64,000 nucleotides of DNA from a bacterium (GTDB lineage: Bacteria > Verrucomicrobiota > Verrucomicrobiia > Limisphaerales > J093). A program made the position numbers and the translations under genes. The stretch spans positions 7,575 to 71,574 of the forward strand of contig JAKANS010000002.1 of assembly GCA_021823625.1 (NCBI GenBank), in the 5' to 3' direction. Shown piece by piece: positions 6,101 to 30,924 of this stretch; the first letter of the stretch is position 1, and the number at the start of each line of letters is the position of its first letter. The notes below the pieces were generated by a model that had not been told where the DNA came from, did no database searches, and saw nothing but the letters and a program-made list of their open reading frames with translations.

Positions 6101-9100
6101 CTGGTACGTACTCGCGGCGAACTGGAGCGAGCATTCGTCGTCGAGCACGAGCACCTGGCCATTGGTATTGGTGCCGTAAGTGGCGCTGGCATCCAGGTTG
6201 GTGAGCATCAGCGGCAGGGTCTTGTCGCCGTCAAACAACTCGTCGTCCAACAGCTTGACCTGGGCCACGGCCGTGGTCTGGCCCGGCGCGAAGATCACCG
6301 TGTAATTCGTCGCCGTGAAGTCGAGGCCGTCGATGGCCGTTCCGTTGGTGGTGGCGAGCACGTCCACCTGGAGCTGGTTCGTGACGATACCGTAGCGGCT
6401 GAGCGTGACCGGCGCGGTGGCGTCGCTTTCCAGGGCGCGCACAGTCGGCGCGAGCAACTCGACCACCGTGTCGTCGTCCAGGATGGTGAGTGTCGCGGTG
6501 GCCTGGCCGCCCAGCGGCACACCATCGCTCAAGTTGCGGAGCGTCAACAGCACAGTGCGGTCGGGCTGCACGATCCGATTGTCGTTCAGGCTGACGGAGA
6601 ACGTCTGCAACGTCTCGCCGGGCGCGAACGTCACCACGCCGTTGGTGGGAATGAAGTCGTTGGTGGTGGCGGTCCCGGCCACCGCTTGGAAGGCCACGCT
6701 CGCCGTGCCGTTGGTGTCGCTGGTCCGGCGGACGGTGATCTGGGCCTGACCGGCGCTTTCGTACACGGCGTAAATCAGCGATGAGAATTCGACGGCGCCG
6801 TCGTTGTCGATGAGGGTCACCGTGCCTTGCGCGTTGGTGCTGAGGAGGGCTCCTGGCGCGCCTATGAGGCTGAGCTGGACCGATTCCATGAACTCCTGGA
6901 TCGGATCGTCGATCGGGATCACCGGCACGGCCAGTGTGGCCTCGCCTTTGGGAATCACCAGTGTGTCGGGAATGGTCTCGTAGTCGCTGCCGTTGGCTGC
7001 GGTGCCGCTCACGGCCAGCTTGACGACCTGGTCCCGGTTGGTGGCGCCCACGCGACGGATCGTGAACAGACCTTGCTTGCGTCCTTGTTCCATCGCGATC
7101 GGGTCGGTGGTTTCCAGGCTCACGACGCTCGAATCGTTGTCCACGATCGTCAGCGTGTGCGACGGGTACACGTCGAACATTGCGTTCATCGGAACGGGCG
7201 TCACCGTCGTGTTGGTGACCAGGACGTTCGTCGTGCCGATCGTTTCGCCAGCGTCGTTGGTGAGCGTGATTTCGTTCGTGGTGACGATGTTACTGATCAG
7301 CGGAGCAGGTTCGACCAGCGTGAGCAACACCGTGCGGTCCGGCCGCGCGTTGGTGTCGTCGATCATCGGGAAGGCGAGGAGCTGGACGCGGTTGCTCACC
7401 GCCGGGTCGGGCACGTTGGTGAAGACCAGCCGGCCGGACGTGTTGGTGGCCGGGTAGTCGGTCCCCGGCACTGCCGTGCCACCGGTGACCTTCCAGTCCA
7501 CAGTGACATCCGTGTCTTGGGCGGGATTGGCGCTGACGGCGACCGCGACGAGGGCGGTCTTGACGCCCTCCGAGAAAGTGGAGTTCTGGAAAGTAAAGCC
7601 CACGCCCGGCAACGCCCCGCTGTCGTCGTCGGCGATCGTCACCGTGTCCTGCATGGGCGAGCCCACGTTGTAGTTGGTGCTCGGCAGGACTTCGCAGATC
7701 ACGGTCTCGTCGTCCTCGCGAACCTTGTCGTTCACCGGCGACACCCGGATCACGACGGACGTAGCACCGGCGGGGATGACACCGGCCGTGGTGATCGGCG
7801 CGTAATCCGCCACGGGCCGCGCCGTGCCCCCCACGGCGAGTTCCACCGTGAGTGCCTGGCGCGTATCGCCGACGCGGCTGAGCGTGAATTCGCCGACCGT
7901 GCTGGGCTCGGCAGCGTTCGCCGGGGTGGCACGCAAGGTCACCGTCGGCACCGCGCCATCCTGGATAAACACGGTGGCCACGCTCGGAGATCCCACGTTG
8001 TAGGTCGGGCTATCGGAAAGGATGATATCGACGCCATTGCCGCCGTCCCGAGCGCGGTTGTCCCGCGGTTGGATTACCAACGTGACGGACGGCTGGCCGG
8101 CCGGGATCGTGATCGTGCCCGACAAGGCCCGGTAGTCCTGGCCGTTGATCGCCGAGCCGCCGACCAGGTAATTGACGGTCAAGCTGCGGCTCAAATCGCC
8201 CGTGCGAGTAAACACCACCGATCCCGGGTCATTCCCGGTCTCGGAGGCGACCGAATCTTGGGCCAGGACCGTCAGCGTCGGCAGCACGTTGTCGCCGATG
8301 GTCAAGGTCGCCTTGGCGGTGCCCAGCGTGTACGTGGGATCGGCCAGCACCGAGACGGTGACGCTCTCATTGCCTTCCAAGTACAAGTCAGGCCGCACGT
8401 AAAGCGGCAACGGCACGGCGGTCACGCCAGCCGGGATCACCACGATGGACGGCAGCGGGGCATAGTCCGCGTCGTACGTGGCCGTTCCGCTGTAAGCCAG
8501 GCGGACGGTTACGGGCACGTCGGTTTTGCCGGACCGCAGCAGCATGAAGAGCGCGGAATCGCCGCCGTTCTCGCTCACGGCCTTGCTGATGGCCAGGATG
8601 GAAATGGTCGGTTGCGTCGGCGGGGTGATCTTGAAATTCATCTGCGCCTGGCCGGGCGTGCCCACCACGTAGTCGCCATAGGTCTGGAACCAGGTGTCGT
8701 TGCCGGTGGGCGCGAGCACCTCCCAGCCGGTCAGCCGCGTGTAGTTGGTGGCCAGGCCGTTGGTGGTGCCGCCGTTGCCGTCGTCCACGTTGGTCATGAA
8801 CACGGTTTCTCGCTGCAAGGCGTACATCACGGACGCAGAGAGATAATGCAGGTCGGTCTTGGGCGCGTTCGTGGACGGCGTGATGGTGATGTTGGTTTGG
8901 AACACGCCCGTCTGAAAATCCACGAAGCTGAAAGGAATCTTGAGCGTCACGGGCCCGAGCAAGGTGGTCAACGGGTTCGTGTGAACCGTCTGGTTCGTGT
9001 ACGCTTGGTAGTCGTTGGTGCTGACGGTGCCGCCGAGCGTGAACACGGCTCTGAGTTGCGTGTTCGTGTCGCCCGTCCGCATGAACGTGAAGATGCCCGG

Positions 9101-23992: not shown

Positions 23993-24577
23993 TCACTGGG
24001 CCGGACTGAACGGCGATTGCGACGGCAATTTGTTGGGATCGTACGGGAGATTATTTTCGTCGTGCACCCGGTTGCCGGCCGGATCGATGATCGTGGGGGT
24101 CACGAAAATGACCAGATTCTTCTTCGAACTCGACTTCGCCTCGCTGCGGAACAAGCGGCCGACCAGCGGCAGATCGCCGAAGACGGGCACCTTGTCCTTG
24201 ACCTTGGTGACGCGCTCGGAGATCAAGCCGCCCAGCACCACGGTCTGTCCGTCCCACACGATCGAACTGGTCACGACCTGGCGGATGCGGAACCGCGGCA
24301 GCGGCACCGGCGCGGCCAGGTTGCCGACGACCGCCCGGAATTGGCCGGGATCGTCGTAGCCGAGGAATTCGGTAACCGTCGGCAGCAGGTTTAGTTGGAT
24401 GGTGTAACCATCCGCCGAAACGTGCGGGATCACGTCCAAGGTCGGGCCGATCGGCACCGGGACGGTGGTGGGTTGAATCGTCGGGGTGGCCGCCGCCTGG
24501 TTGACCACCTGGGCGTGGGCCAGGCCGCCCAACCCCAAAACCGCCGCACCGAGCAGAACAAGCGCTTTGATTCTCAT
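23993..24577 (-). CDS. secretin C-terminal half (second part of the PF00263-type secretin domain) with its own signal peptide
   Basis: MRIKALVLLGAAVLGLGGLAHAQ signal, then LDVIPHVSADGYTIQLNL, WDGQTVVLGGLISE, KVPVFGDLPLVGRLFRS and NLVIFVTPTIID, which is the canonical C-terminal secretin signature. It is in the same frame as the upstream 826-aa ORF and is separated from it by a single TAA. Confidence 0.8.
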   Translation of the reverse strand: MRIKALVLLGAAVLGLGGLAHAQVVNQAAATPTIQPTTVPVPIGPTLDVIPHVSADGYTIQLNLLPTVTEFLGYDDPGQFRAVVGNLAAPVPLPRFRIRQVVTSSIVWDGQTVVLGGLISERVTKVKDKVPVFGDLPLVGRLFRSEAKSSSKKNLVIFVTPTIIDPAGNRVHDENNLPYDPNKLPSQSPFSPAQ

Positions 24578-24610: not shown

Positions 24611-27061
24611 TTACTGGACGACCCCAACACCCGTCGTCGTCCCACCACCCACCGTGCCTGTGCCGGTAGTAGTGGTGCCGCCGCCGATGCCGCCGGCCTG
24701 GTTATACGAAACCACCGTCTGGAGATCGATGATTTGAATCTGTGCCTGGCGACCGCTCACGGTCGTCACTTTCGGGGCGGAGAGCACATCCACGCCGCCG
24801 CGTTGTTCCAGTGCCCGGATCACCACCCGGAATTGGGGATCCGTCATGATGCCGGTGACCGTCGCGAGGGTTGGGATCGCTGTGCCGCCGACCTCCGTGC
24901 TGCGCAATCCAGAGGTGATTATTTGATCCGTACCGGCGTTAGGCGCCACCGCCGGCGCTCCGAAATTGCCCGGAAACACGCCGTAAGGGTTCGCGGCGGA
25001 GGGCGTGCCCGCATACGAAGGCGCCGTCCCGCCAGAGAGGCCGACGTTGCCGCCCGCCATGTTGAAATTACCCAAATACCAGTCGAAGCCGAGGGCCTTC
25101 GCGTCGTCCTGCCCGATTTCGACGAACTTGACCTCGATGGTCACCTGATCCGGCGTCATGTTTAGGGCTTGGATCGCCTGATCGATGATCTCGAGATCCT
25201 GCATGGTCGCCCGAACCAAGAGGAGCCCGGTGCGGTCATTAAAGAACAAAGCTTTGCCTTGGGCGTTCTGGAAACCCGCGCCGGCCGCGCCGCCTTGGAA
25301 GCCGCCCGCGCCGCTGAAACCGCCGCCACCCTGGCCGAGAATGTTCTGGCCGCCCAGATCGACACCTGCCGCGGTGAAGTATTGCCGCACGAGGTCGTTG
25401 ACGTAGGACATCGGGGTCGATCCCGCCACGCCAGTGGGACTTCCACCGCTGCCGAGTCCACCGCCACCGCCTTGGCCACCGAGTCCACCGCCTTGGCCGC
25501 CATAGCCACCGCCACCCCCGCCGATGCCGCCACCACCACCGCCACCATAGCCGCCGCCGCCGCCGAAACCGCCGCCGCCTTGGCCGCCATAGCCACCACC
25601 GCCGATACTCACCCGCGCAATCGACAGACCGCCACCGCCGCCTTGGCCGCCATAACCGCCACCACCACCGCCGTAACCGCCACCACCACCACCACCGCCG
25701 AGGCCGCCGCCACCGCCGAGACCTCCGCCACCCAAACCGCCACCCCCGGTACCGCCAGTACCACTGCCGCCGAGCACACTGGAATAATCGATGGCATAGA
25801 CGCCTTCGAGTCCTTGCACGAACGTGTTCGGGTTGACCTTGAAGGTCTTGGTAAAGAGCTGTTCGCCTTCGGGAATCTTCTTGCTGAACACGATCGCGTA
25901 TTCCTCGACCGAGTACTTGATCTGCTTCTCAGCCACTTTGACGATTGCGTCCAGCACGTCGGCCAAGCGCACGTCATGCAGTGGCGGCTCGATCTTGATC
26001 TGGACTTCGCCCAGGTCGAACTGCTCCTGCTCGGGCGCCGCGGTCACCGGCTGCCCGGTCTGCGGATCGAAGGTGGTCAGCCCGGCCGCCGCCTGACGCG
26101 GCTGGGAGTCGATGGTCGGGGCAATGATGAAATTGAGCCCCTTCTTGTCCGGGTCGCGCAGACGGGCTTCCTCGTCCAGATAGGTGACGGCCTCGCTCAA
26201 CGACACGCCGGGGAAGTCCACTTTCTCGAGGCGGATGCGATCAAGCTTGGAATAAATCATTCGGCGGCCTGGACCGGTATAAACGGTATTGGTACGGGCA
26301 AACGGGTTGGCCACCGGCAGCTTCTCGCGCGAGATGGACGGATTCCAAGCCTCCTCGACCTCGACCATCTTGTTGCGAGCCATGATTTCGCGCTTCACGG
26401 CATCTTGCTTGTACCGCAACTCCTGAACCATGGTGAGATAATAACCCGCGGCGCGGTTCTCCGGATCGATCTTGATCGCCTGCCGAAGCTTCCCTTCCGC
26501 CTCGTCCAATTTGCCCATTTCATAAAGCAGCTTGGCATCCTGCACCAAACTACCTGCGTCCAACTTGGACTGGTGGGCCTCCGGCAACAGGGCGACGATT
26601 TCCTTGCTGGGGGTTCGCCCCTCGAGCGCCTTGAGCGCCTTGTCCACCTTCACCTTCAACTCTTGCGCCTCGGGGTTCTTCGGATCCACCCGGAGCACGC
26701 GCGACACCTGCCGGTTGGCCTCTTCGTAGGCGGCGCTGGCATAGGATTTCTTGCTGAGCGCCAGGTAGGTGGCGGAGAAGCCGGCCACGGTCTCTTTGCG
26801 CTCGTTCTCGATGCTCGTGTCTCCGATGCGCTGGACCAAGCTCCAGCACTCTTCGTACAACCGGGACGCATCCATGAGGTTGCCCTGGCGGGACTGGGCG
26901 GCCGCCTCCTTCAAATCTTTGCGCAAGAGAATCCGAAGTTCCTCCCGCCGTACGGCTTCCTCGGCCGCAGTCGTCTGCGCCGCATTCGTCTGGGCCCGGG
27001 CAGTGGGCACCGCCACCCAGAGGGCCGCCGCGGCGACGGTGATGAAGGCAAATCGAATCAT
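24611..27061 (-). CDS. secretin N-terminal part (TPR-like region, N-domains, Gly-rich domain, first strands of the secretin domain); Amuc_1098/PilQ-like
   Basis: Signal MIRFAFITVAAAALWVAVPTARAQ (ATG at 27061). TPR-like helices (KLLYEMGKLDEAEGKLRQAIKIDPEN). Secretin N-type domains (IRLEKVDFPGVSLSEAVTYL; LLLVRATMQDLEIIDQAIQALN; VTIEVKFVEI). VLSAPKVTTVSGRQAQIQI marks the start of the secretin domain. The ORF ends at the TAA at 24611-24613. Confidence 0.8.
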   Translation of the reverse strand: MIRFAFITVAAAALWVAVPTARAQTNAAQTTAAEEAVRREELRILLRKDLKEAAAQSRQGNLMDASRLYEECWSLVQRIGDTSIENERKETVAGFSATYLALSKKSYASAAYEEANRQVSRVLRVDPKNPEAQELKVKVDKALKALEGRTPSKEIVALLPEAHQSKLDAGSLVQDAKLLYEMGKLDEAEGKLRQAIKIDPENRAAGYYLTMVQELRYKQDAVKREIMARNKMVEVEEAWNPSISREKLPVANPFARTNTVYTGPGRRMIYSKLDRIRLEKVDFPGVSLSEAVTYLDEEARLRDPDKKGLNFIIAPTIDSQPRQAAAGLTTFDPQTGQPVTAAPEQEQFDLGEVQIKIEPPLHDVRLADVLDAIVKVAEKQIKYSVEEYAIVFSKKIPEGEQLFTKTFKVNPNTFVQGLEGVYAIDYSSVLGGSGTGGTGGGGLGGGGLGGGGGLGGGGGGGGYGGGGGGYGGQGGGGGLSIARVSIGGGGYGGQGGGGFGGGGGYGGGGGGGIGGGGGGYGGQGGGLGGQGGGGGLGSGGSPTGVAGSTPMSYVNDLVRQYFTAAGVDLGGQNILGQGGGGFSGAGGFQGGAAGAGFQNAQGKALFFNDRTGLLLVRATMQDLEIIDQAIQALNMTPDQVTIEVKFVEIGQDDAKALGFDWYLGNFNMAGGNVGLSGGTAPSYAGTPSAANPYGVFPGNFGAPAVAPNAGTDQIITSGLRSTEVGGTAIPTLATVTGIMTDPQFRVVIRALEQRGGVDVLSAPKVTTVSGRQAQIQIIDLQTVVSYNQAGGIGGGTTTTGTGTVGGGTTTGVGVVQ

Positions 27062-27118
27062 GGATGGGTTATTTCGCAAAACGGAAGACATAAAGCAATG
27101 CGGATTACGGAGCGGCCT

Positions 27119-27916
27119 TCAGCGGTTGAGCGAGATCACGGTTCGGCGTTTGGTTTTCTCGTCCTCGATTGTAACGTCCGAGGCACTGATGGCAACGACA
27201 TTGTAGGTGGAACCGGCCACGGTGAGCTTGCTGCCCTGCCTTTCCTTCAAGAAGGTGCGGCCTTCGCCCTCGTGGCGCAGGTCGGCCGAGTAACCCGCCA
27301 CTTCGTTGTAACCTTTGTCCTTGGGAACCACCACGGTGGTGCGCGAATCCGCCAGCTCCACGCGAAAGCCATCCGGGCGGTCCTTCGGCCCCATGACCTC
27401 TTTGAGCAGGATGACATCCGGTTTGTCGTTGATGGCAAGAATCACGATGCGACCGTGCTGCAGGCTCGACACGGTTGCCGCCTGGTTTTGCACGTAGAAG
27501 CGGTACCTCGTGGCGGTGCCGCTTCGAGAGAGGCCCTGGAATTCGATGCGGAGCATCAGCGGCGTGATATTCGTAACGATCAGTCCCTCCAAACCTGAAG
27601 GCGGCGGGGGAATCGGCGGAAAGCCTCCGGGACCCCTGCCTTTCATCCAGGTGCCGGAAGGATTGAACAAACCGTGTTTGCCGGTCCCGAAACCGAACTT
27701 GATGGGCCCCTTCAGTCGGGCGAGCACGGCTTCGTTCGTGGAGAGGTTGAGTTCGGGAATCGGCGCCACCTTGGGGTCATCCACCGCACTCGTCACCACC
27801 GCGAGCCTCTCCCGGACGTTGGCCACTTCGAAAGGCAGATAACCGGCCGCCACCGCCAAGCTGAGCAAGACCACGCTCAGCAGTATCTTCTCGTAGTGCT
27901 TCTTTAGAAAGTCCAT
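27119..27916 (-). CDS. membrane-anchored hypothetical protein in the PilP / Amuc_1099 position
   Basis: 265-aa ORF with an N-terminal TM (ILLSVVLLSLAVAAGYLPF). It lies between the PilO-position gene and the secretin, with an 8-nt gap upstream. The function is inferred from position only. Confidence 0.55.
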   Translation of the reverse strand: MDFLKKHYEKILLSVVLLSLAVAAGYLPFEVANVRERLAVVTSAVDDPKVAPIPELNLSTNEAVLARLKGPIKFGFGTGKHGLFNPSGTWMKGRGPGGFPPIPPPPSGLEGLIVTNITPLMLRIEFQGLSRSGTATRYRFYVQNQAATVSSLQHGRIVILAINDKPDVILLKEVMGPKDRPDGFRVELADSRTTVVVPKDKGYNEVAGYSADLRHEGEGRTFLKERQGSKLTVAGSTYNVVAISASDVTIEDEKTKRRTVISLNR

Positions 27917-27924
27917 GCGTCAAC

Positions 27925-29013
27925 TTAGGGGGAGGGCGTGGCTTCCGGAGCCGCCGCTGGATCGGGTGGAGCCGCTTGCGGATCGCCTGCAGCCGCCTGC
28001 CCGCGCGCACCGCCTGACCGGCTGGCCTTGGCTTCGTTCGGATCGCGGAGCCTGACGATGTCCACCCAGGCTGTCACGCGGAAGGGTTTTTCGCTGACGA
28101 TCTTCGCGGCGTCTTCCTGGGCGGTCAGCGTCGCCGAATCCATCGGTTGCGGGGCCATTGGCATGCGCCCGCGCAAACCGTACCGCATCATCATCATCAT
28201 CGCGGGACTCATCGCAGGCATGTTACCCTCGCCGCCGCCCGTGGGCGCGTAGATGTCAACCGTATTGGTGTCCCCGGTATCGACGATCAGGTTTTTGAGC
28301 AGCAAGCTGTGAGGGTTGCGGGCCAGACCTTCGAGCACGGACTGCAACTCGCTGCTGAAACAGCGGAAAGTGAACTCGTAAGGGATCACCACGGCCAGGT
28401 CGTTGGTAACGGCTTTTCGCGTCCAGTAATCCGAAGTGCCGCCCATCATTCCGATTCCGGGCGTGTCTTGCGTGGCCAGCGAGATACGGCGGATCCGTTC
28501 GAGTTCCAAAACCTTCGCATCGAAGATAATCTCGCAGACTTCCTTGATTTCCATGAGCGCGCGCGTCAACGGCACCACGGTGTTGGCCTCGACGAACGCG
28601 AGTGGTTTCTGGGCGGCGAAGGTAAAGGCGTAATTGTCAGGGAGTTTCGTGCTCGACTGCCGCGCCAACCGCTGCAGGTAGTCCACCGTGGTGTCGAGCA
28701 GGAGTTTGAAATCGCCGCCGCTGAGGTTGGTCGGGTACGGTACGGGGACGAACTGTTGCTTCGCCCGCGCGGCAAAGACCTCGAGTTTCTCCTCCTGCTG
28801 CCGCGCGGCGGCGATGTTGTCCACCTTCCGGTTGCCCGGATGCGGTTTCATGCGGAGCAGCCCCTGCAACTCAGTGTCCTGCGCCTCGAGCTTGGTCGTC
28901 ACCTCCGCCGAATGCTGGATCTTGAGGTAGAGAAAATAGCCGGCAAAACCCAGGAGAGCCAAAGCCGCGACCCCGCTGATGACCAGCGTGAGGTTTTTTT
29001 TGATCCAGTCCAT
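27925..29013 (-). CDS. Amuc_1100-like / PilO-position pilus-complex protein
   Basis: N-terminal TM (LTLVISGVAALALLGFAGYFLYL), then a coiled-coil. The segments IPYEFTFRCFSSELQSVLEGLARNPHSLLLKNLIV and EKPFRVTAWVDIVRL resemble, from memory, the Akkermansia Amuc_1100 segments LEIAFQGDRESVLKAMNAI...FTVNSIRI and QVFVKVSLNLVHF. There is a 3-nt gap to the pilMN stop. Confidence 0.5.
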   Translation of the reverse strand: MDWIKKNLTLVISGVAALALLGFAGYFLYLKIQHSAEVTTKLEAQDTELQGLLRMKPHPGNRKVDNIAAARQQEEKLEVFAARAKQQFVPVPYPTNLSGGDFKLLLDTTVDYLQRLARQSSTKLPDNYAFTFAAQKPLAFVEANTVVPLTRALMEIKEVCEIIFDAKVLELERIRRISLATQDTPGIGMMGGTSDYWTRKAVTNDLAVVIPYEFTFRCFSSELQSVLEGLARNPHSLLLKNLIVDTGDTNTVDIYAPTGGGEGNMPAMSPAMMMMMRYGLRGRMPMAPQPMDSATLTAQEDAAKIVSEKPFRVTAWVDIVRLRDPNEAKASRSGGARGQAAAGDPQAAPPDPAAAPEATPSP

Positions 29014-29016
29014 ACC

Positions 29017-30924
29017 TTACAGTTTGATGGGCGCGGCGAGCTTCAGTTTCACCTCAAACCGGAAGGTGTTGGTGGTCTGGTCAGGCTGCATGTTGCCGGA
29101 GAGCACCGTGCCATTGGTGCCGCTGAGGAAAAGCGGATTGGCCCGCAACGCCTCCTGCACCGCCAGCATGATCTCGGTGTTCGCGGTGGGATTGGCGATG
29201 TGCCAGTCGATCGCCCGGCAGGTCAGGTTCACGGTGGAGATTTCGTTGGTGTTGGGCTTGCTGGGTGCTGCACCCGCATCCGGCGCGCCCGAGGCGTCGC
29301 TGGCGCCGCTGGCGTCGCCGCCCGAAGAGTCACCGCCCGTATCCTGCGTGATTTTGAAGCCTTTCGGGACCAAGCCATAACGCATCATCATCCGGATATC
29401 CATCATCATGGGCTTCGGCTTGTTGCTCTCGTCCTCCTGCTCTTCCGGTGGCGCCGAAAGGTTCTCCGCCGCCAGGCGTTCGATCCAGACCGCCGTCTTC
29501 ATTCCCGGTTGGGTGGTCACCTTCTCCGCCGTCACCAAAGAGTTACGCAACGCCGTTAGAATATCCGCCCAAGCGAACCGGTCCTCGAGCCACTCCGTGT
29601 ACTGATCCACCACCTTCTGCGCCTCATCGCGTTTGCGCATGGCGGCCTTAAACTGCTCCGCATTCTGCTTCAGTCGGGCCACCTTGGGGTCACGTTCGTC
29701 GATCGCCTGTTGCTTCACTGCGGCGACGCGATCGAAAAACATGCCCATCGCGAACACGGCCAGGATCAAGCTGATGACCGCCGCAATGAAATAAGGCTTT
29801 TTCTGGTTGAACTGTTGGCGCTGGAGGATCGTCTTCGGAATCAGGTTCAGCTCCACCGGACACCGCGTCGGATTGCGCAAACCGAGCCCGACGACCTCGC
29901 CAAACGAATGGGCCACCCGCGCCAATTCTTCGATATTGACGCCCGGGGCGATCTCCACGTTCCGGAATGGATTGAAGTAATCCACCGGCAGGTTGAGCTT
30001 CTCCGCGAAGAACTGCGAGGTGTAGGCCATGATGGAGGCCCCGCCCGAAAGAAATACCCGCTGAGGCGCCGAGCCGCCTTGCTGGCTCCGGTAAAACTGG
30101 ATGGTCTGATTGACCTGGATGTGCAGGCGGGTCATCACCTGCCGGGCGATCTTGGAAATCGCCGCCTGGCGCGGGCTGTCAGGCTCTTCGTAAGCGCCGC
30201 CCAAGCTGACGAAGCCCTCGGCGATCTTGATTTTCTCCGCCTCGGCGAACGGCAGTTTCGACTCGGCGGCGAACTCCTGGGTGATCGAGTTCGCGCCAAT
30301 GTTGATGCTGCGGCAATAGATCTTGTCCTTCTCGAAAAAGAGGACGTTGCTGGTCTTGGCACCGATGTCCAGCAGCATCGAACAGCCTTCCTGATCGCCG
30401 TAATTATAGCGGAAGGCATTCGCGAGCGCTGCCGCGGAAACATCCACCAGTTGCAGCCGCAAGCCCTGCCCTTCCGCGGCCTTGAACAGGCCCTCGACCA
30501 AGTCGGTCTTGATGGCGACGAGGAGAACCTCCAGTTCGCCCGAAGGCAGATTGCCGAGAATCTGGTAGTCCCAGACGACCTCCTCCAGTGGGAAAGGCAC
30601 GTTCTGCTGGGCCTCGTACTGGATGATCTGGGTGGCCTTCGAGGCGTCCACCGGCGGCAGCTTGATGAACTTCGAGAACGCTTGGAAACCTGGGGCGCAA
30701 ACGTTGCAGTCGCGCGCGTTGAAGGTCTTGCTGCCGACCACCTCCTGCAAAGCACGCAGCACCACGCCCTCCCGGGCGCTATCCTGCGCGCCCGCAAATC
30801 CCAACGGCTTGACCGCGTAACGCAGCAGCCGGAGGGCGCCCGCTTCGGTGGCGTCAAATTCGGCCAGCTTCAGCGTCCCGGCGCCAAAGTCGATGCACAA
30901 AAAGGATTTCGACGTGTTCAGCAT
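29017..30924 (-). CDS. pilM: PilM-like actin-fold ATPase fused to a PilN-like membrane segment (Amuc_1101-like)
   Basis: Residues 1-350 look PilM/FtsA-like (FLCIDFGAGTLKLAEF, LVDVSAAALANAF, MLLDIGAKTSNV, VFLSGGAS). ELNLIPK and a TM helix (YFIAAVISLILAVFAMGMFF) follow as in PilN, then a coiled-coil and a C-terminal extension of about 130 aa. Confidence 0.8.
   Translation of the reverse strand: MLNTSKSFLCIDFGAGTLKLAEFDATEAGALRLLRYAVKPLGFAGAQDSAREGVVLRALQEVVGSKTFNARDCNVCAPGFQAFSKFIKLPPVDASKATQIIQYEAQQNVPFPLEEVVWDYQILGNLPSGELEVLLVAIKTDLVEGLFKAAEGQGLRLQLVDVSAAALANAFRYNYGDQEGCSMLLDIGAKTSNVLFFEKDKIYCRSINIGANSITQEFAAESKLPFAEAEKIKIAEGFVSLGGAYEEPDSPRQAAISKIARQVMTRLHIQVNQTIQFYRSQQGGSAPQRVFLSGGASIMAYTSQFFAEKLNLPVDYFNPFRNVEIAPGVNIEELARVAHSFGEVVGLGLRNPTRCPVELNLIPKTILQRQQFNQKKPYFIAAVISLILAVFAMGMFFDRVAAVKQQAIDERDPKVARLKQNAEQFKAAMRKRDEAQKVVDQYTEWLEDRFAWADILTALRNSLVTAEKVTTQPGMKTAVWIERLAAENLSAPPEEQEDESNKPKPMMMDIRMMMRYGLVPKGFKITQDTGGDSSGGDASGASDASGAPDAGAAPSKPNTNEISTVNLTCRAIDWHIANPTANTEIMLAVQEALRANPLFLSGTNGTVLSGNMQPDQTTNTFRFEVKLKLAAPIKL

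Follow-up and report, generated by a model that had tools for sequence, protein, structure and literature searches.

What is a bacterial secretin doing with more than one hundred nearly pure glycine residues in its periplasmic part? The question is raised by a gene in the 64,000-nucleotide stretch of DNA analyzed here (the window), which covers positions 7,575 to 71,574 of contig JAKANS010000002.1 in the genome assembly GCA_021823625.1 of a member of the Verrucomicrobiota. Type II and type III secretion, type IV pili and filamentous-phage export all depend on secretins, large gated pores whose gating is currently explained by rigid β-hairpins together with small, ordered N3 loops. The gene, secretin open reading frame (ORF) A, lies on the minus strand at positions 24611–27091 (24614–27091 in the ORF list and its translation) and encodes 826 amino acids followed by a TAA stop; its layout runs from a signal peptide through a TPR region, an N0-like domain and an N3-like domain with Gly-rich insertions to the first part of the secretin barrel. 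Judged by sequence comparison and structure modeling, the glycine tract is probably a selectively maintained, predicted disordered insertion in a type IV pilus secretin, within the last of its periplasmic ring domains, where it may act as a soft constriction.

Residues 441–552 (window positions 25436–25771) comprise 82 Gly among 112 residues (73%), the others being six Leu, five Ser, five Tyr, four Gln, three Ile, two Thr and one each of Ala, Arg, Val, Phe and Pro; the lone Arg is the only basic residue, and Asp and Glu are absent. A second patch, residues 585–607 (25271–25339), is Gly at 12 of its 23 positions, and the remainder of ORF A holds 7.9% Gly. The first-pass annotation of this DNA had described an almost pure Gly segment at about residues 440–552 and a second patch at 585–607, its coordinates 25271–25774 corresponding to residues 440–607, and translation reproduces the sequence that it quoted. 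Calcium-binding repeats of the RTX type (GGxGxD) were considered and rejected for a tract without Asp.

When all six frames of the 6.1-Mb assembly were scanned (28,619 stop-to-stop ORFs of at least 100 amino acids) for 40-residue windows with at least 60% Gly, only three ORFs contained one, and the secretin region, at 132 residues, was more than twice as long as the next longest. The tract is therefore more than a chance feature of a high-GC genome. The other two ORFs, G000:C2 (ORF from 1758, plus strand, residues 323–380) and G000:C104 (ORF from 20285, plus strand, residues 17–64), are of different character: in one the segment is rich in G, A and S, and in the other it is N-terminal and RGG/GGM-like.

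The position of the tract within the fold was approached with two sets of AlphaFold2 (AF2) predictions of five models each, the first of full-length ORF A with 82 sequences and the second of residues 405–650 alone, read alongside an alignment of 82 homologues. All of the elements that follow are on the minus strand. The N-terminal anchor, residues 413–433 (25793–25855), consists of N3 strand 1 (FTKTFKV, 413–418), an invariant PNTF motif and a short helix; AF2 places the strand at 413–418 and the helix at about 421–429, with predicted local distance difference test (pLDDT) scores of 86–88 for strand 1 in the domain-only model. Four of its residues, P421, N422, F424 and G427, are invariant across the 82 homologues. 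Relatives that lack the tract have ‘RTFSVPPGF’ as the homologous segment, and in them only 25–40 residues separate strand 1 from the next helix. Gly arm 1 follows, residues 441–488 (25628–25771; 48 amino acids), in which Gly runs of 2–8 are broken by single L, Y, Q, S or T residues and pLDDT is ~28–35 in the full-length and ~40 in the domain-only prediction. The arm ends at a hydrophobic island, LSIARVSI, residues 489–496 (25604–25627), annotated as a strand with the consensus phi-phi-[PA]-R-[VI]-x-[VLI]-A/S, and AF2 draws a short strand at 492–494 within it. The island is found in most of the aligned homologues, and among the 46 that fit the strict pattern the Arg is kept in 45 and the Val in 40. 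Gly arm 2, residues 497–550 (25442–25603; 54 amino acids), has AF2 pLDDT values of ~30–45 and leads to the C-terminal anchor, N3 helix 1 (VNDLVRQYFTAAGV, residues 561–574, 25370–25411), modeled at pLDDT 82–90, with F572 and G576 invariant in the same alignment. The second Gly-rich patch (pLDDT <50) sits in the loop that joins helix 1 of the N3-like domain to strand 2, a loop that is 30–47 amino acids long and Gly-rich in the closer relatives only, the wider-family median being 13. Beyond it come N3 strands 2 and 3 and helix 2, residues 614–643 (KALFFNDRTGLLLVRATMQDLEIIDQAIQALN, 25163–25252), at pLDDT 91–96.

The order of these parts, FKV-(D/N)PNTF-xQGLE, arm 1, hydrophobic island, arm 2 and a helix ending …VR.FF.AAGV, is conserved across the 82 homologues. 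A profile search of the PDB aligns residues 614–700 to the N3 domain and barrel start of solved secretins, and strand 2 to helix 2 align by profile to the N3 domains of the Deinococcus radiodurans piliation protein DR_0774 (8co1), of InvG, of the PilQ proteins of V. cholerae, M. xanthus and P. aeruginosa, and of PulD. In the domain-only prediction helix 1 reaches pLDDT ~90 and strands 614–618 and 623–628 and helix 630–644 reach 91–96, so that the modeled order directly before the barrel is the strand-helix-strand-strand-helix of an N3 domain. Since strand 413–418 is both homologous to N3 strand 1 of the tract-less relatives and confidently modeled, the tract appears to be a bipartite insertion that interrupts the N3-like domain after strand 1 and before helix 1, with both of its ends pinned. 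The first-pass annotation had placed it between the N0-like and N3-like domains, an assignment that we would revise, as strand 1 of N3 already precedes the tract.

The insertions themselves are, by the same models, predicted to be intrinsically disordered. The full-length models show the TPR, N0-like and N3-like elements with confidence and assign pLDDT ~30 to residues 433–552 and 584–608; the domain-only models leave residues 430–557 structureless at pLDDT ~40 and loop 587–601 unstructured at <50. The structure prediction that the first-pass annotation had proposed as a check thus agrees with its description of a disordered segment, both Gly segments being unstructured at pLDDT ~30–45 in two AF2 runs. 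A fold search with the full-length AF2 model returned TPR proteins only, and nothing on the tract.

Is the tract a peculiarity of one genome? A secretin homologue is present in all 40 of the related genomes searched. Comparison of orthologues, which the first-pass annotation had also put forward, bears the tract out: all nine same-genus orthologues, together with the family-level orthologues fetched, carry a Gly-rich tract in the same place and in frame with conserved flanks, and a Gly-rich segment lies at about residues 410–520 in 108 of 120 database homologues (43–74% identity over the N-terminal 440 residues). In the 82 aligned homologues its core has a median length of 65 residues (range 18–117) and a composition of 65% Gly, 0.7% Asp plus Glu, 1.9% Lys plus Arg and 1.4% Pro, the longest and purest versions (94–117 residues, 73–78% Gly) being those of the window’s own genus. 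The guest residues set among the glycines follow lineage: this genome uses L, Y, Q and I, most congeners have F, sister genera have M or Y, and more distant homologues have Q, S, A or R. Guest identity, in other words, turns over fast, and position, bipartite layout and Gly-richness are kept. One homologue, P0135 (941 amino acids), has at the insertion site a 135-residue low-complexity segment rich in Asn, Gly and Gln, with the central hydrophobic island retained; because of this Asn-rich version, the comparison suggests that length and lack of charge may matter more than glycine itself.

How far the insertion extends was asked at the level of the phylum with the NCBIfam model NF042912 (Amuc_1098 family type IV pilus outer-membrane protein) against 300 evenly drawn genomes. 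There was a strong match in 156 of the 300 and a score above the model’s cut-off in 22, genomes of 2–3 Mb that all fall in one family and that we take as Akkermansia-type. These Akkermansia-type proteins are single-chain and have at the corresponding place a short, acidic Gly/Asp/Ser loop of ~25 residues (…VGDGGGEVSDDPFGGGGESSSGL…) from which the island is absent. The span from strand 1 to strand 3 is 66–97 residues with at most 22% Gly in the Akkermansia-type proteins and in 33 further genomes from other families of the class and phylum, as against 217 residues and 47% Gly here. The other families were compared by a MAFFT alignment across 40 other genomes, with seven loci (L022, L038, L039, L053, L054, L061 and L068) excluded as wrong-strand shadow ORFs. 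Given so short a loop in the Akkermansia-type and the 33 sampled lineages, the long bipartite Gly insertion appears to be an expansion specific to the order of this genome and its database relatives, probably built upon a loop that is modestly Gly-rich elsewhere.

At the DNA level the first-pass annotation had regarded the tract as slippage-prone and length variation as likely. The second half of that expectation stands, in that relatives differ in length in frame; the first fares less well against the mixed codons, a longest exact repeated word of just 23 nt and low tandem-repeat scores. The Gly codons of the tract are 43 GGC, 33 GGT, 4 GGA and 2 GGG; GGT is enriched in the tract relative to the rest of the gene in six of six orthologues, and GGT and GGC are mixed in all six. 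Tandem Repeats Finder reports imperfect arrays only, with periods of 9–30, matches of 62–88% and scores of at most 86. The tract DNA is thus a degenerate repeat and not a clean microsatellite. Compared with the closest orthologue (91% protein identity), DNA identity is 67–84% in the tract and 83–95% in the flanks, the indels being small with the frame preserved overall. Members of clusters of at least 90% identity differ by whole units, P0270 for example having four extra GGGGF relative to P0003, although collapsed assemblies could account for some of the difference. With units in multiples of three, a change in their number would give length variation and not on/off phase variation.

That the tract is itself an artefact of this contig seems improbable from the comparison of orthologues: the reading frame is open throughout, and both flanks align to the orthologous genes. 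In at least six relatives the contig breaks off within the Gly tract, and another contig opens with the remainder of the gene (L013–L018; G012, G016, G021, G027). With contigs ending within it, the tract evidently breaks short-read assemblies; in those relatives it is present, and hard to assemble from short reads.

To what, then, does an insertion at these positions correspond in secretins of solved structure? The most instructive case is InvG, in which a variable insertion, residues 217–267, falls after N3 helix 1 and before strand 2; other secretin structures show it disordered (PMC6155069). This variable loop was proposed as the cause of a periplasmic constriction, and in needle-bound InvG it threads out between N3 and N1 and stabilizes subunit interfaces (PMC6155069). 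InvG also has a β-hairpin insertion specific to type III secretion systems, on which a conserved Arg198 props the closed gate (PMC6155069). By profile alignment InvG residues 266–329 match from strand 2 onward, InvG 266 being the start of strand 2 (KALFF); as the variable insertion ends at that point, the second patch, alone of the two, is positionally equivalent to it. Both proteins, then, carry insertions in N3, and the turn of the InvG β-insertion at Arg198 finds a parallel in the conserved Arg on the short strand of the main tract. The scale is quite different, the InvG loops having ~50 and 20 residues of ordinary composition and the window protein 112 and 23 residues that are 52–73% Gly and almost chargeless. 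In the phage secretin pIV the disordered N3 and Gate 1 loops both point into the center of the pore, where the inner width of the N3 ring is 74 Å (PMC8563730); for V. cholerae PilQ the width of this ring is 60 Å. The pIV N3 loop is short and not Gly-rich, unlike those of the window secretin.

A third low-complexity segment is found where the protein ends. The secretin is split by a single in-frame TAA (24611–24613), and ORF B (23993–24571 on the minus strand; 192 amino acids from an ATG at 24571) begins 12 codons on with a signal-peptide-like start, MRIKALVLLGAAVLGLGGLAHAQ, and continues into the remaining secretin barrel. The C-terminal tail of ORF A, residues 800–826 (GGIGGGTTTTGTGTVGGGTTTGVGVVQ, 24614–24694, minus strand), is G/T-rich. 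Split orthologues in several genera share the site of the cut, whether ORF B continues in the frame of ORF A or in a different one, and all have a signal-peptide-like ORF B start and an ORF A that ends in the same G/T-rich tail; distant relatives at the level of the order are single chains of 920–976 amino acids, and a G-rich segment occupies the corresponding site within the barrel domain of unsplit relatives. In InvG the conserved Gly407 is the kink of the GATE1 hairpin (PMC6155069). Residue 42 of ORF B aligns to InvG 407, and by this alignment the cut therefore lies at the tip of GATE1. A pseudogene was considered and rejected in view of the conserved split and the signal-peptide-like ORF B starts. 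The first-pass annotation had allowed that the gene might otherwise be decaying, a concern that the conserved split removes: the in-frame stop belongs to a conserved two-gene arrangement.

Taken together, these observations lead us to favor, tentatively and with slightly less than even confidence, the view that the insertions would form a charge-free, deformable constriction beneath the gate. Both insertion sites would correspond to N3 loops that are flexible and channel-directed in the solved secretins InvG and pIV, and with GATE1 included all three low-complexity segments would fall at lumen-facing or gate-directed sites, the main tract by virtue of the order of its elements. Solved secretins have 12–15 subunits (chain counts of the PDB matches). 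At 135 Gly-rich residues per subunit, a ring of this size would bear ~1,600–2,000 flexible, uncharged residues on a 6–7 nm ring under the gate. The Gly arms may then serve as a soft gasket that fills the empty vestibule, a passing pilus pushing them aside or threading them out, and the conserved Arg-bearing strand may pin the midpoint of the loop either to the ring or to the gate from below. A gel-like plug or a selectivity filter, as floated by the first-pass annotation, would be compatible, by analogy, with the topology of two loop sites that are lumen-facing in solved secretins. A more ambitious version would have the two N3 loops and the GATE1 tip, all of them charge-free Gly or Gly/Thr chains, form a cohesive polymer-brush or gel-like ‘soft gate’ that closes off the pore and that the pilus passes by displacement; this we consider rather improbable. 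Were it true, it would represent a partial replacement of the rigid hairpin gate and, in bacteria, an equivalent of the permeability barrier of the nuclear pore. At the GATE1 tip the polypeptide is, in addition, cut into two chains, each with a predicted export signal.

Several points weigh against a deformable constriction. Strand 1 and helix 1 did not align to any solved structure in a PDB profile search with the Gly segments cut out, and a fold search with the domain-only model gave weak matches (E ≥0.19 over 32–41 aligned columns), almost all of them to secretin N domains, which are consistent with an N3 fold and do not prove the membership of strand 1. The main tract is assigned tentatively to the InvG β-insertion site, from the order of elements and the published residue numbers. 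The low pLDDT values come from a monomer model and are no proof of disorder in the assembled ring, and the secretin chains are predicted from genes. That the loops would face the lumen is drawn from topology and from other secretins, and the oligomeric arrangement and the function are likewise proposals. Two loci, L007 (G003) and L020 (G017), have a continuous Gly-rich tract without the central island, so that either the pinning strand is not strictly required or the repeat collapsed in assembly; a real deletion by recombination between the arms could account for the loss as well as assembly collapse could. The guest residue, moreover, varies freely among the homologues. Finally, ~2,000 residues approach the dry volume of the whole N3-ring lumen and would have to leave it completely for a pilus of ~6 nm, an estimate that fits displacement and an outward-facing arrangement equally.

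That last point bears on an alternative in which the arms lie on the outer or lower face of the ring as a collar, strapping neighboring subunits together during assembly or touching peptidoglycan, the TPR/N0 module or partner proteins, comparable jobs being done in other PilQ systems by AMIN domains or TsaP. Loop volume would be hard to fit in the lumen beside a pilus, no AMIN domain was found in the secretin by Pfam or NCBIfam, and hydrophobic or aromatic guests (F, Y, M, L) spaced by Gly could cohere weakly; the equivalent variable loop of needle-bound InvG, as noted, does thread outward between N3 and N1 (PMC6155069). A peptidoglycan-binding motif is absent, however, and many homologues have Q, S, A or R as guests, so that aromatic cohesion cannot be general; on balance we regard such a collar as unlikely. 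The periplasm-spanning tether suggested by the first-pass annotation, a flexible linker that would let the TPR/N0 module reach inner-membrane partners whose distance from the barrel varies, fits a segment that is long, uncharged and predicted disordered, and flexible N0–N3 linkers do occur elsewhere, that of pIV having 19 residues (PMC8563730). Its difficulty is one of topology: strand 413–418 is N3 strand 1 (pLDDT 86–88), and with both ends pinned within one folded N3-like domain the insertion therefore cannot add reach; a conserved mid-tract strand and a second patch in the same domain are likewise a poor match for a simple spacer, and we disfavor the tether as decidedly unlikely. An ordered polyglycine-II bundle or sandwich, of the sort found in the snow-flea antifreeze protein and the phage S16 gp38 adhesin, would make the tract a compact, rigid module of the ring. 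In favor of it are the very high Gly content, runs of 4–8 that could in principle form short polyglycine-II helices, and the fact that folds of this kind can escape AF2 when the alignment is shallow or repetitive. Yet three-residue periodicity is absent, the Gly runs of the family ranging from 2 to 11 residues with no fixed period and no bias toward multiples of three that would bring the guests onto one face; close relatives differ freely through gain and loss of repeat units; and in both AF2 runs, of five models each, pLDDT is ~30–45 with secondary structure only at the island. With neither the periodicity nor a modeled structure, the tract was rejected as a member of this class, and an ordered bundle seems to us very improbable.

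The remaining alternative is that the tract is tolerated without a function in its own right, replication slippage or unequal recombination among GGN repeats having inflated a permissive N3 surface loop in genomes of high GC content. The faster divergence of the tract DNA and its small in-frame indels are what such neutral expansion would produce, as are the whole-unit differences between near-identical relatives such as P0003 and P0270, the lineage-specific guests, an Asn-rich version where composition differs, and the many lineages, Akkermansia included, that do without the tract. Set against this are the same site, the same bipartite layout and the near-total exclusion of charge and Pro in more than 100 homologues down to ~43% identity; the shared composition of three loops of one protein in a 6.1-Mb genome otherwise almost devoid of such tracts; and a mixture of GGC and GGT codons with a 23-nt longest repeat, unlike the product of unchecked slippage. 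The Asn-rich segment of P0135 can in fact be read the other way and, with the GGT/GGC mixture in all six orthologues examined, argues for selection over pure slippage. We therefore think a functionless expansion unlikely, and a deformable constriction remains our preferred, if tentative, interpretation.

The identity of the gene, on which the foregoing depends, follows from family models and from its neighborhood. ORF B scores 100.6 bits over positions 46–169 of the Pfam Secretin domain (PF00263; gathering threshold 27.5 bits) and ORF A 19.6 bits over positions 1–50, so that the barrel that defines the secretin superfamily is complete only across ORF A and ORF B; Pfam also finds TPR matches at ORF A residues 117–219. 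The best NCBIfam model for both ORFs is NF042912 (250.2 and 130.6 bits), which sets its equivalogue cut-off at 750 bits, a value that makes the window protein a distant homologue of the Amuc_1098 family; a search of the source genome found no NF042912 match at E 1e-100 or better. NCBIfam models of GspD, MshL and PilQ match ORF A residues 602–809, the type IVa PilQ model TIGR02515 gives 45 and 76.5 bits against a cut-off of 284, and PDB profile matches to GspD, PilQ, InvG and pIV extend down to E = 1e-24. Upstream, the protein at 27925–29013 matches Amuc_1100_fam (E = 8e-13) and that at 29017–30924 scores 485 bits with Amuc_1101_fam and 148 bits, above its cut-off, with TIGR01175 pilM. A TPR-fused secretin with Amuc_1100-like and Amuc_1101/PilM-like neighbors is the pattern of the Amuc_1098 family, and from these models on both ORFs and the two upstream genes we therefore conclude that the gene encodes a TPR-fused secretin of the Amuc_1098 kind, part of a verrucomicrobial type IV pilus-like cluster. 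All of the named database homologues belong to the Verrucomicrobiota.

Two further observations concern this gene and its relatives. A plus-strand open frame of 809 amino acids (25169–27598) runs antisense to the secretin and is taken as a shadow ORF of high-GC DNA. Larger proteins of 1,000–2,400 amino acids (P0125, P0151, P0156, P0164 and P0196, and G000:C211:7294-9150 in the source genome) share the TPR/N0-like/PNTF module and in part the secretin region; the connectors at the insertion site in these larger paralogous proteins are short and Gly-poor.

If the assignments above are right, a large uncultured branch of the Verrucomicrobiota has filled the N3 loop positions of a secretin with more than 100 nearly pure Gly residues per subunit, or ~2,000 per channel, which would imply either a polymer-like sealing or cushioning of a 6–7 nm pore or a striking tolerance of low-complexity expansion in these loops. 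The family is under-recognized in metagenomes, where the tract breaks assemblies and close homologues are named only ‘TPR repeat protein’. Among studied systems its closest relative is the Amuc_1098/Amuc_1100 cluster of Akkermansia, an organism in which that cluster is medically relevant and the tract is lacking.

The comparison with that relative is the closest available. The Akkermansia muciniphila PilQ/Amuc_1098 protein (NF042912; PMC4960237) is likewise TPR-fused, has the same order of TPR, N0-like, N3-like and barrel regions, and is preceded directly upstream by Amuc_1100-like and PilM-like genes; it differs in being a single chain with a ~25-residue acidic loop and no island, where the window secretin has 112 residues in the loop and is divided between two ORFs. 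The Akkermansia PilQ paper describes the TPR and secretin domains only (PMC4960237), and a glycine-rich region goes unmentioned in the Amuc_1098 papers that we found, a 2026 Amuc_1098 paper searched by term among them. Nor did we find a description of a Gly-rich insertion in a secretin in the literature on secretins and PilQ, on N3-domain disorder or on polyglycine II. The first-pass annotation had treated such a segment as not known from characterized secretins, and for Akkermansia-type Amuc_1098, the one characterized relative type, with its short loop only, this holds; the tract amounts to a huge expansion, in an unusual composition, of loops already known to vary in secretins.

Low-complexity sequence in the periplasmic part of a pilus secretin has a precedent in the small basic repeats of Neisseria PilQ, which are polymorphic. 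Those repeats are basic octapeptides of Pro, Ala, Lys and Gln near the N-terminus, neither Gly-rich nor inside N3. In composition the arms recall the glycine loops of loricrin and the keratins, in which an aromatic or aliphatic residue and a Gly run are quasi-repeated and which are thought to be flexible and elastic; these, like the plant GGX glycine-rich proteins, share the quasi-repeat but are eukaryotic and unrelated. In arrangement there is an analogy with the FG nucleoporins, whose long, charge-poor disordered chains line a large channel, anchored in its wall and punctuated by hydrophobic or aromatic residues. FG domains have polar Ser, Thr, Asn and Gln spacers and FG, GLFG or FxFG motifs that bind transport receptors; in the window secretin the spacer is Gly and the guests are Y, L and Q, with F, M, R, S or N elsewhere, the tract having, in a comparison by composition only, one Phe, five Tyr and six Leu among its 82 Gly. 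The likeness is thus one of resemblance and not of membership, and what the two systems would share are anchored, charge-poor, predicted disordered chains, which in close relatives of the window secretin take the form (GGGGF)n.

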